From the IMG/VR virus record IMGVR_UViG_2734482569_000010: a stretch of 4,591 bases of DNA. One strand, given 5' to 3'. This DNA comes from a virus. Its lineage: Duplodnaviria; Heunggongvirae; Uroviricota; Caudoviricetes. Both the position numbers and the translations under genes were made by a program. Below, in pieces: positions 1 through 4,591 of this stretch. Within the stretch, counting starts at the first letter, position 1; the number at the start of each line of letters is the position of its first letter. The notes under the pieces were generated by a model, which saw only the letters and a list, made by a program, of their open reading frames with translations, made no database searches and was not told where the DNA came from.

Positions 1-41
1 GCTTTGAACTCTTTAGAGTAACGTTGGGTTTTTCTGCTCAT
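1..41 (-). CDS. IS3-family transposase OrfA, N-terminal 14 codons only (continues beyond window start)
   Basis: Start ATG at 41-39 on the - strand, AGGAG 6 nt upstream; translation MSRKTQRYSKEFKA. All three + frames have stops within 1-60, so this stretch is not + coding. Confidence 0.55.
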   Translation of the reverse strand, partial: MSRKTQRYSKEFK

Positions 42-105
42 TATTAGCTCCTTCTGATGCCATTCTATTTCAGGAAGGAGTGTCCGTTAAACTCAGGCTA
101 CCTCA
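1..105 (-). mobile_element. Terminal segment of an IS3-family insertion sequence (IS600-like), truncated by the window edge; inferred IS terminus near 103-105
   Basis: The - strand carries a Shine-Dalgarno (GAAGGAG) and an ATG at 41-39 opening an ORF that reads MSRKTQRYSKEFKA and leaves the window, which I recognise as the N-terminus of IS3-family OrfA (IS600-type). Reverse complement of 76-105 reads TGAGGTAGCCTGAGTTTAACGGACACTCC, a TGA-initiated terminal inverted-repeat-like end. The exact boundary is uncertain by about 10 bp. Confidence 0.6.
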
Positions 106-782
106 GGTTATTCGCTTCTGGGCATGGGCGGATCAACAAATGATAGACGGTAATGCAGATTGTAACGCTCGCGGCGTTACAAAAAGTGCAATAGATCGCA
201 TCACTTTTATGTCTGGTTTTGCTGATGCGTTAATTCAGGTTGGATGGCTGGTCGAAAATGACGGAGGGCTTTCTCTACCTAACTTTGAACGTCATAACGG
301 AAAAAGCTCTAAAAAAAACGGGCGGTTACAAACGAGCGAGTAACAAAAATACGCGAACTGAAACGAAAAGGTAACGCTGCCAGCGTTACACAAACGGATC
401 AAAAAGCGTTACCAGAGGAAGAGGAAGAGGAAGATCTAAATACTGATCTCCCCCTCGCCAAAAACGAGCGTCTAAAAAATTCGAGCCGGAGGCTATTGAG
501 CTGCCCGATTGGTTGCCGGAAACACTCTGGCATGAGTGGGTCCGGTTCAGACAGGCATTGCGAAAACCGATTCGAACGGAGCAGGGCGCTAACGGGGCGA
601 TACGGGAACTGGAAAAATTCCGTCAGCAGGGTTTTACACCTGAGCAGGTGATTCGACACAGCATCGCCAATGAATACCAGGGCCTGTTCGCGCCGAAAGG
701 TGTTCGGCCTGAGACGTTGCTCCGACAGGTTAACACCGTCTCGTTGCCGGACAGTGCGATCCCGCCAGGCTTCAGGGGGTAA
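106..782 (+). pseudogene. Phage replication initiator/organizer protein (Rac YdaU-like) with DnaT-like C-terminal domain; 5' end removed by the IS insertion, two apparent -1 frameshifts
   Basis: Protein-like translation is continuous only by reading frame 2 (to stop at 341-343), then frame 1 (313 to about 476), then frame 0 (to TAA 780-782). The switches coincide with an A8 run (311-318) and an A6 run (474-479). The frame-0 segment has no ATG/GTG start or Shine-Dalgarno, only TTG at 513. The C-terminus ...VNTVSLPDSAIPPGFRG matches from memory the end of E. coli primosomal protein DnaT (...NTVSEPDSQIPPGFRG). The first ~9 residues of track ORF 80-343 are IS-derived. Confidence 0.6.
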
Positions 783-788
783 CGGACC

Positions 789-1516
789 ATGAAAAATATT
801 GCGACAGGCGGCGTTCTGGAACGCATCCGCCGACTGACCCCGCCACATGTAACCGCCCCATTCAGAACGGTAGCGGAGTGGCGCGAGTGGCAACTTGCTG
901 AAGGCCAGAAACGTAGCGAGGAGATCAACCGCCTGAATCGCCAGTTGCGGGTGGAAAAAATTCTGAATCGCTCAGGCATCCAGCCGTTGCACCGTAAATG
1001 CTCGTTTGCGAATTACCAGGTGCAGAACGACGGCCAGCGATACGCGTTAAGCCAGGCGAAATCCATCGCCGATGAACTGATGACCGGGTGTACAAATTTT
1101 GCGTTCAGCGGAAAACCTGGTACCGGGAAGAATCACTTAGCGGCAGCTATCGGGAATCGCCTGCTGAAAGACGGTCAGACAGTGATTGTGGTTACCGTGG
1201 CTGATGTTATGAGCGCCCTGCNNNNNNNNNNNNNNNNNNNNNNNNNNNNNNNNNNNNNNNNNNNNNNNNNNNNNNNNNNNNNNNNNNNNNNNNNNNNNNN
1301 NNNNNNNNNNNNNNNNNNNNNNNNNNNNNNNNNNNNNNNNNNNNNNNNNNNNNNNNNNNNNNNNNNNNNNNNNNNNNNNNNNNNNNNNNNNNNNNNNNNN
1401 NNNNNNNNNNNNNNNNNNNNNNNNNNNNNNNNNNNNNNNNNNNNNNNNNNNNNNNNNNNNNNNNNNNNNNNNNNNNNNNNNNNNNNNNNNNNNNNNNNNN
1501 NNNNNNNNNNNNNNNN
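789..1516 (+). CDS. DnaC/IstB-family AAA+ replicative helicase loader (Rac YdaV-like); 3' end lies inside the N-run and is not determinable
   Basis: ATG at 789, 6 nt after the upstream TAA. Walker A motif FSGKPGTGKNHLAAAIGNRL is present, and the N-terminal region resembles prophage DnaC-like proteins. Only 789-1221 is visible. No stop occurs in any frame in 1517-1535, so the stop must lie inside the masked region. The track ORF 789-1955 is an artefact of translating N as X. Confidence 0.8.
1222..1516. other. Run of 295 N (masked or unresolved sequence) inside the DnaC-like gene
   Basis: Directly visible. The length is roughly what is needed to finish a DnaC-sized protein of about 245 aa before the next gene at 1533, suggesting length-preserving masking rather than an arbitrary gap. 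Confidence 0.95.
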
Positions 1517-2516: not shown

Positions 2517-3203
2517 ATGACCCCAATAAACATATTTATGACAGTTGCTGATTTCAAACGGCCCAAATTGGAGCTCCCAAACGGGGCAAACAAACTACTA
2601 CTGCACTCTTGCTGTGCTCCATGTTCCGGTGAGGTGATGGAGGCGCTTCAGGCCTCGGGAATCGACTACACCATCTTTTTCTACAACCCGAACATTCATC
2701 CTCAGAAAGAGTATTTAATTCGTAAGGATGAGAATATTCGCTTTGCTGAACAACACGGCGTGCCGTTTATTGATGCTGATTACGACACAGACAACTGGTT
2801 TGAACGAGCCAAAGGAATGGAATGGGAGCCCGAACGAGGGATCCGTTGCACCATGTGTTTTGACATGCGTTTTGAGCGGACAGCGCTGTACGCCGCTGAA
2901 AATGGTTTCAGTGTGATCAGCAGTTCACTGGGCATTTCACGCTGGAAAAATATGCAGCAGGTTAACGACTGTGGGCGGCGAGCCGTCGCGCATTATCCGG
3001 GCATGGTGTACTGGGATTATAACTGGCGCAAGCAGGGCGGCTCGTCCCGTATGATTGAAATCAGCAAGCGCGAAAAATTCTATCAGCAGGAATATTGTGG
3101 CTGTGTGTATTCTCTGCGCGATACCAATCTACACCGCAAATCTCAGGGACGCCCTCTTATCAAAATTGGTCAACTCCACTACGGTAAAGAAGAGAAGGAG
3201 TGA
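2517..3203 (+). CDS. queH: Epoxyqueuosine reductase QueH (DUF208 family) homolog
   Basis: 228-aa ORF with the QueH signature motifs [25 protein letters not shown] and QEYCGCVYS, with the Cys pattern expected for its metal sites. The start is ambiguous between ATG 2517 and ATG 2538; neither has a clear Shine-Dalgarno. The frame is closed upstream by TAG at 2481-2483. Confidence 0.85.
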
Positions 3204-3354: not shown

Positions 3355-3655
3355 NNNNNNNNNNNNNNNNNNNNNNNNNNNNNNNNNNNNNNNNNNNNNN
3401 NNNNNNNNNNNNNNNNNNNNNNNNNNNNNNNNNNNNNNNNNNNNNNNNNNNNNNNNNNNNNNNNNNNNNNNNNNNNNNNNNNNNNNNNNNNNNNNNNNNN
3501 NNNNNNNNNNNNNNNNNNNNNNNNNNNNNNNNNNNNNNNNNNNNNNNNNNNNNNNNNNNNNNNNNNNNNNNNNNNNNNNNNNNNNNNNNNNNNNNNNNNN
3601 NNNNNNNNNNNNNNNNNNNNNNNNNNNNNNNNNNNNNNNNNNNNNNNNNNNNNNN
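3355..3655. other. Run of 301 N (masked or unresolved sequence) between promoter P1 and the intrinsic terminator
   Basis: Directly visible. Content is unknown; the flanks suggest a short + strand transcription unit. Confidence 0.95.
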
Positions 3656-4177: not shown

Positions 4178-4531
4178 ATGGCACATATACAACTGGTCAA
4201 ACAAACCTCTTCCGGATTACTTCTCCCGGCGACGCCGGAGAGTTGCGATTTTCTGCATCAAATCAAAATAGGTGAGTGGATACACGCAGACTTTAAGCGT
4301 GTGTGTAACTACGCATTCCACAAGCGTTTTTTCAAACTCCTGCAACTGGGTTTCGATTACTGGACTCCGGTCGGTGGGGCGATCACGCCTCGCGAACGAA
4401 AACTGGTGTCCGGTTTCGTTGATTACCTGTGTGAATCAGTAGGCCGGGAACATACGCCAGCTCTGAGCGAAGCCGCAGAGCAATTGAGGTGTACTGGCAA
4501 TAGCGGACACTACCATTTGTTCTTTTTTTAA
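4178..4531 (+). CDS. Hypothetical phage-associated protein (117 aa)
   Basis: The track ORF begins at TTG 4136, but ATG 4178 with GGAG 7 nt upstream is the more credible start. Translation MAHIQLVKQTSSGLLLPATPESCDFLHQIKIGEWIHADFKRVCNYAFHKRFFKLLQLGFDYWTPVGG... ends at TAA 4529-4531. No confident family assignment. Confidence 0.6.
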   Translation: MAHIQLVKQTSSGLLLPATPESCDFLHQIKIGEWIHADFKRVCNYAFHKRFFKLLQLGFDYWTPVGGAITPRERKLVSGFVDYLCESVGREHTPALSEAAEQLRCTGNSGHYHLFFF

Positions 4532-4591
4532 GCAGCCATCTGATGATATTTTTCCCTGAAGGCTGCCGGGGAGATATTCCCCAGACGAGAG

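Follow-up and report, generated by a model that had tools for sequence, protein, structure and literature searches.

A probable replication-initiator pseudogene with three lesions in a Rac-like prophage remnant of Shigella sonnei

What broke the gene at the head of this prophage segment, and does the intactness of the genes behind it signal selection by the host? We address this question in a stretch of viral DNA of 4,591 bp (the window; IMG/VR record IMGVR_UViG_2734482569_000010), with a focus on its first 782 positions. We conclude that positions 1-782 are very probably the downstream half of an initiator pseudogene in a Rac-like lambdoid prophage remnant of S. sonnei, disabled by three independent lesions in the course of neutral decay. 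None of the evidence gathered contradicts the pseudogene reading. The kind of event is already known: this is an ordinary dead gene, of a sort that is routine in IS-rich Shigella genomes. Its import beyond annotation is small, and its value is that of a clean example of Shigella prophage decay, in which IS insertion, homopolymer slippage, and direct-repeat deletion are found together.

Source of the window

The window includes two N-masked stretches, at 1222-1516 and 3355-3655. Its three unmasked segments show 0 mismatches against loci L004 and L005 (GCA_000815825.1, GCA_965230885.1), which belong to a set of eight comparison loci from independent assemblies, retrieved via an 87-aa ORF at 80-343. 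About 105 nt of the same IS stand at both window ends, and the longest contig bearing the 87-aa protein is merely 2-5 kb in 397 of 481 index blocks; on these two grounds the window has the appearance of an entire short-read contig whose assembly broke off at IS600 repeats.

The N runs differ from the true lengths in L004, where the 295 N correspond to 312 bp and the 301 N to 285 bp. The corresponding L004 sequence comprises the 3' portion of ydaV and the hok/mok region, the latter with a predicted 70-aa Hok_Gef ORF.

Three scans returned little. At gathering thresholds, an Rfam scan of the window gave 0 hits. Promoter and terminator consensus patterns occur in the window at chance level, with nothing usable for queH. 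An exact-pattern scan for the IS/gene junction found no match in one-genome-per-species contigs, a set presumably without an S. sonnei-type genome.

Identity of the interrupted gene

The gene that the window enters from the left is best understood through an intact counterpart. The best complete E. coli match is FDAARGOS_944 (locus L001), where an uninterrupted 789-nt CDS encodes 262 aa. The gene order of L001 (262-aa CDS, ydaV, DUF977, 118-aa ORF, queH, hokD, 95-aa ORF, and DUF1367) is also that of the window, where the first gene appears as follows:

106-782, plus strand: 3' part of the initiator pseudogene, the counterpart of nt 106-789 in the intact gene (alignment to L001 3398-4186; phrog_2509; stop codon at 780-782)

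A PHROGs comparison of the intact ortholog gives phrog_2509 ("replication initiation protein", 1.2e-89 over residues 1-262) and phrog_678 ("replication initiation O-like", 7e-26). Phage records name the homolog "DNA replication protein O". In L001 and L004 the gene sits between the immunity/cro region and the helicase loader, in the order cI-like, Cro, YdaT, initiator, YdaV. Toward its C-terminus, residues 170-262 resemble the DnaT C-terminal structures 2RU8 (9.5e-5) and 9ZBT (3e-4), and the last 124 aa (residues 139-262) are 81% identical to the C-terminus of K-12 YdaU. On the strength of the phrog_2509 match, the C-terminal likeness to DnaT, the "protein O" records, and the DnaC-like ydaV that follows, we assign the gene by sequence as a lambda-O-type prophage replication initiator. 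The preliminary description, made from the letters of the window, had likewise seen a prophage replication initiator, and the full-length phrog_2509 match followed by a DnaC-like ydaV bears this out.

The same description called the gene YdaU/DnaT-like, a label that fits the C-terminal domain (81% identity to YdaU; likeness to 2RU8) and fails for the N-terminal domain, which is not of the DUF1376/YdaU type. Pfam returned no family match for the intact 262-aa ortholog, DUF1376 included, and the N-terminal part gave no alignment to K-12 YdaU residues 1-161, the DUF1376 domain. We rejected membership in the YdaU family (DUF1376), given that Pfam result and an alignment to K-12 YdaU restricted to residues 139-262. 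Full DnaT membership was rejected as well: the NCBIfam DnaT model, whose cut-off is 201 bits, reaches 16 bits, over the last 19 residues only. Judged from these comparisons, what the initiator and DnaT appear to have in common is a C-terminal domain, not family membership. The N-terminal domain is presumed, from the PHROG and record annotation, to recognise the origin.

Insertion of IS600

The first of the three lesions occupies the left end of the window.

1-105, minus strand: IRL-side end of a 1264-bp IS600 (IS3 family), with 100% match to E. coli IS copies and a full copy in L004
106-108, no strand: right-hand copy of the 3-bp target-site duplication GGT, from the L004 flanks compared with the intact gene

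IS copies 100% identical to window positions 1-109 number in the thousands in E. coli (E 3e-49). Locus L004 carries, at 8763-10026, a complete 1264-bp element that holds window 1-105 and is 99.7% identical to the RefSeq element [quoted passage not shown]. The element ends with window position 105, in the terminal sequence ...CCTCA, and homology to intact initiator genes begins at 105/106. The earlier proposal that an IS3-family, IS600-like element ends at about 105 inside the gene is thus exact, and comparison with E. coli IS copies and the RefSeq element identifies it as IS600.

The start codon of orfA lies at 41-39 on the minus strand, and the gene runs leftward out of the window with an N-terminus that reads MSRKTQRYSKEFKA. 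The element ends in TG...CA with imperfect inverted repeats (IRL TGAGGTAGCCTGAGTTTAACGGACAC, IRR TGAGGTGTACTGGCAATAGCGGACAC), and every locus has gene calls for an orfA of 100 aa (HTH_Tnp_1) and an orfB of 272 aa (rve). Because the RefSeq reference copy is labelled "programmed frameshift", -1 frameshifting between orfA and orfB is predicted from annotation. Near-identity, length, TG...CA ends, the orfA/orfB pair, and the 3-bp duplication all place the element in IS600.

The insertion itself can be read from its flanks. In L004 these are ...GGGAAGGT before IS600 and GGTTATTCG... after it, where the intact gene reads GGGAAGGTTATTCG; GGT stands on both sides of the left IS600 and occurs once in the intact gene. 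The 5' 105 nt of the initiator lie directly beyond IS600, outside the window. The left IS600 is a simple transposition after initiator nt 105, with a 3-bp GGT duplication.

This flank arrangement is retained in 6 of the 8 loci, the exceptions being L005 and L009. The outer flank of the left IS600 in L005 is not the initiator 5' end, and the cI/cro/ydaT region is absent, which suggests a secondary IS600-mediated deletion. In L009, a Rac-type ydaV abuts IS600 with its 3' end, the joint itself being marked by an N, and beyond ~1414 the locus departs from the window sequence; it may be a scaffold join or a recombinant.

Two frame lesions beyond the insertion

Alignment to the intact gene reveals exactly two length differences within 106-782. 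The features that bear on the frame, all from this alignment, are these:

311-318, plus strand: A8 run in the context TCT-A8-CGG, A6 in intact orthologs; a gain of 2 and the first frameshift
449-455, plus strand: retained copy of the 7-bp direct repeat TCCCCCT; the 10 bases TCCCCCTAAA are deleted directly upstream, giving the second frameshift
474-479, plus strand: A6 run, identical in the intact ortholog, with no lesion

Expressed as position modulo 3, the initiator occupies frame 2 as far as the A8 run; frame 1 carries it between 319 and the deletion; and from 447 onward, through the stop codon at 780-782, it is in frame 0. Frame 2 continued past the A-run meets a TAA at 341-343. Two -1 frame changes are needed to keep 106-782 open, as the preliminary description had deduced, and the A8 run that it took for one frameshift site is A8 where the intact ortholog has A6. 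Its second site, the A6 run, was misplaced. Frames 1 and 0 are both open over 447-651, the interval in which this run happens to lie. The true lesion is a deletion of 10 bp (TCCCCCTAAA) between two TCCCCCT repeats, with its junction at 448/449. The alignment to intact genes that had been called for returned orthologs in which one uninterrupted ORF contains A6 and the 10 bp missing here. A programmed frameshift or a split gene was ruled out, since the intact orthologs have this structure.

In silico repair completes the account. With IS600 and one GGT taken out, A8 returned to A6, and the 10 bp put back, the sequence yields a 789-nt ORF. Its 262-aa product is identical to the E. coli protein, and the two genes differ by one synonymous nucleotide.

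An artefactual ORF in public annotation

The junction of IS600 and initiator has given rise to an annotated protein.

80-343, plus strand: artefactual 87-aa ORF, read from the sequence, with a GTG start in the IS600 end, initiator codons 36-104, and the tail NGRLQTSE

The ORF starts in the IS600 inverted repeat and continues through 69 initiator codons to an 8-residue frameshifted tail. The exact 87-aa protein is found on 492 public contigs under the name "putative bacteriophage protein [Shigella sonnei]". The S. sonnei name confirms the suspicion of a Shigella genome that the preliminary description had voiced, and what hundreds of S. sonnei assemblies list as a "putative bacteriophage protein" is an artefact of the fusion between an IS and a pseudogene.

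Are the small indels real?

Homopolymers and short repeats are typical sites of error, and both small lesions fall in low-complexity sequence. One may thus suppose that the two frameshifts are sequencing or assembly errors and that IS600 alone disrupts the gene. Scattered broken ORFs in some long-read assemblies (a split ydaV in L008, a shortened ORF in L011) lend this some colour. We regard it as extremely unlikely: the same A8 and the same 10-bp deletion recur in 8/8 independent loci, the A8-dependent tail of the 87-aa product is present on those 492 contigs in 481 index blocks, and a 10-bp deletion is atypical as a read error.

A8, the 10-bp deletion, and the IS junction are common to all eight loci. 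A survey of 5,426 complete E. coli genomes gives the other side of the comparison. The A-run region matches in 132 of these genomes, all below 99% identity, such that A8 occurs in 0/132; the 12 E. coli matches listed align 81 query bases with 79 record bases, which is A6. The deletion region matches in 578 genomes, 0/578 of which span the junction, and the listed alignments all start at window position 449. By these counts, neither indel is present in the complete E. coli genomes. The lesions are real and fixed across independent assemblies.

A slippage-prone linker, and palindromes within the gene

Both small lesions fall in the low-complexity linker of the initiator, which carries a further repeat.

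415-432, plus strand: hexamer repeat GAGGAA x3, encoding the acidic linker EEEEEE (comparison of loci)

The A-run is also known from another record (P0002) as an in-frame A9 variant (KSSKKK). The GAGGAA hexamer is present in 3 copies in the window, L004, L005, and L009, in 6 copies in L006-L008 and L010, and in 7 copies in L011. By the variable homopolymer length (A6, A8, A9), the direct repeats, and the variable GAGGAA number, the A-run and linker region is intrinsically slippage-prone.

Among S. sonnei strains GAGGAA is a variable-number tandem repeat within a dead gene. A literature search for an MLVA locus matching this repeat returned nothing relevant.

The gene also holds a repeated motif of another kind.

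162-180, no strand: palindrome GTAACGC-N5-GCGTTAC, candidate initiator or operator site (pattern count; 0 expected by chance)
371-389, no strand: second copy of the palindrome, candidate site (pattern count; a further half-site at 406-412)

For the half-site GTAACGC, 0.36 occurrences would be expected in the window; 6 are observed, all but one of them within 162-412. A related palindrome with a shorter spacer (N3-N5) lies at L001 3365-3385, 12 nt upstream of the intact start codon. We propose the palindromes, from their sequence, as candidate initiator-binding, origin, or autoregulatory sites. The IS600 insertion of S. sonnei lies between the upstream palindrome copy and the two internal copies.

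Neighbouring genes and the question of selection

The gene that follows the initiator is the helicase loader.

789-1221, plus strand: visible 5' part of ydaV, a DnaC-like helicase loader (NCBIfam PRK12377 1.8e-85, DnaC 4e-47); the remainder is N-masked

In the identical locus L004, ydaV is intact (248 aa), and all 747 nt compared agree with the E. coli ortholog. Between the IS600 copies as a whole, the S. sonnei and FDAARGOS_944 prophages differ by 5 substitutions and the two indels over 4390 aligned columns. By gene, the nucleotide differences from the E. coli prophage are as follows:

ydaV: 0
queH: 0
95-aa ORF: 0
DUF977: 1
118-aa ORF: 1

In the same per-gene comparison, rem is identical to the E. 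coli prophage copy.

These numbers bear on an explanation given in the preliminary description: IS600 and two poly-A slips, at A8 and A6, killed the replication gene, and the contrast with an intact cargo (queH and small ORFs) reflects retention of that cargo by host selection. Parts of it are sound, namely the IS end at 105, the A8 lesion, the need for two -1 changes, and an undamaged queH with the same sequence as in E. coli. As a whole we find it improbable. The intact ortholog has the same A6 run, and the second lesion is the 10-bp deletion at 448/449; ydaV, itself a replication gene, is equally intact; and DUF1367 is cut by a second IS600. The per-gene dN/dS-type comparison, with 5 substitutions in 4.4 kb, is without power to detect selection. 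At ~0.1% divergence from an intact prophage, intact ORFs are the null expectation and carry no signal of selection. The lesson is a general one: intact neighbour genes at such a distance from a live prophage do not amount to evidence of selection.

The prophage QueH is an epoxyqueuosine reductase encoded at 2517-3203 (Pfam 1.9e-65), identical to the E. coli prophage copy. The host normally uses QueG. At 90% identity, the QueH cluster has 2308 members across Enterobacter, Klebsiella, E. coli, and Shigella. A literature search for queH in prophages found nothing relevant.

The second IS600 and the wider prophage

The right end of the window is formed by another copy of the element.

4485-4591, minus strand: IRR-side terminus of another IS600, oriented like the first, which truncates the DUF1367 gene at 4178-4484 (Pfam, L004)

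The window's 107 nt match at 100%, and the full element, at L004 14407-15670, differs from the first at 2 of 1264 positions. This copy interrupts the DUF1367 gene between window positions 4484 and 4485, such that Pfam DUF1367 is covered over positions 1-101 of 198. No target duplication is found at the second IS600, whose flanks are AAT and GTT, indicating later recombination. On its far side in L004, a 160-aa integrase fragment abuts modC, which implies an IS600-mediated inversion or deletion.

Two near-identical IS600 copies in the same orientation, 2 differences apart in 1264 bp, bracket a segment of 4.4 kb, an arrangement that brings to mind a composite transposon able to move queH and hok. 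Target duplications speak against it, and on these grounds we rejected it. The left IS600 has its own GGT/GGT with the gene halves contiguous across it, and so inserted alone; the outer flanks of the pair, GGT and GTT, form no duplication. The segment is moreover collinear and, in substitutions, 99.9% identical with an ordinary E. coli prophage. A composite transposon is highly improbable.

Beyond the pair of IS600 copies, the prophage is disordered. Upstream of the left copy, L004 holds a truncated ydaT, cro, a cI-like repressor gene, and DUF1391, followed further upstream by a partial IS600, IS3- and IS110-family elements, and lysis genes in inverted orientation. The locus, as read from its gene content, is a scrambled, rearranged, defective prophage remnant. 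The designation "cryptic, replication-defective prophage" proposed earlier holds in its first part, given the rearranged and defective context in L004; the replication defect is a prediction from sequence.

L004 also contains 712 bp of a third IS600, a partial copy, at 6380-7091.

Neutral decay or adaptive silencing?

We propose the following mechanism. IS600 would have transposed after nt 105 of the initiator, with duplication of GGT; the A6 run would have slipped to A8 (+2); and the 10-bp deletion would have arisen by slippage between the two TCCCCCT repeats. A functional initiator could then, we infer, no longer be made, and the IS, which points the other way, should cut the downstream genes off from the early promoter on the cro side. 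With no functional initiator and the early promoter uncoupled, the prophage origin would be unable to fire. Since the wider locus has been scrambled by further IS elements, these steps probably reflect how a defunct prophage decayed neutrally as IS elements underwent their known expansion in Shigella. Every Shigella species has undergone expansion of IS1, IS2, IS4, IS600, and IS911, and no Shigella reference genome has fewer than 199 pseudogenes (Hawkey et al. 2020, PMC7373316).

The concentration of damage in one gene suggests another cause. Between the IS copies, all three disabling lesions are in the initiator and the other ~3.6 kb are free of indels; both small indels fall in the initiator's 677 bp out of 4380 bp, which has a probability of ~0.024 if they are uniformly placed. 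The initiator could have been inactivated under positive selection, if origin firing in a non-excisable prophage is harmful to the host. The integrase of L004 is reduced to the 160-aa fragment past the second IS600 by modC in a rearranged locus, and, to go by general lambda biology, replication in situ would not be rescued by excision. Such adaptive silencing is unlikely in our view. One knockout would be enough, and three suggest relaxed constraint and hypermutable sequence; the A-run is seen as A6, A8, and A9, and GAGGAA is variable; IS600 struck DUF1367 too; and the data seen contain no independent recurrence in other lineages. A hypermutable linker, together with relaxed constraint after the first hit, accounts for the clustering of the indels more simply than adaptive silencing does. 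A more elaborate form, in which S. sonnei was selected to silence the origin, the IS600-bracketed queH/hok remnant is kept as useful or addictive, and the palindromes mark an uncharacterised origin within the gene, we hold to be quite improbable.

Relation to known systems

Among known systems, neutral decay of this gene most resembles the IS pseudogenisation described for Shigella (PMC7373316). The likeness extends to an IS600 in coding sequence with a 3-bp duplication, a host that is S. sonnei, further small indels in the dead gene, and IS-mediated rearrangements of the flanks; nothing of substance sets the two apart.

The gene itself compares with the lambda O and O-like initiators (phrog_2509, phrog_678) in its two domains, its position after cro and the genes in cII position and before the helicase loader, its low-complexity linker, and the repeated DNA motifs that it contains. 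It differs from lambda O in its surroundings and parts: the helicase loader here is DnaC-like (YdaV), not lambda P, and the C-terminal domain is DnaT-like. Furthermore, the motifs here are palindromes ~200 bp apart, a candidate origin, and not four tandem iterons.

Another neighbour is the YdaU-YdaV pair of the K-12 Rac prophage, which shares gene position, the ydaV partner, and a C-terminal 124 aa at 81% identity, along with the neighbours ydaT, DUF1391, and cI/cro-type genes. The N-terminal domain of the initiator is unrelated to that of K-12 YdaU and lacks DUF1376, which makes the gene a mosaic relative and not a YdaU member in the Pfam sense.
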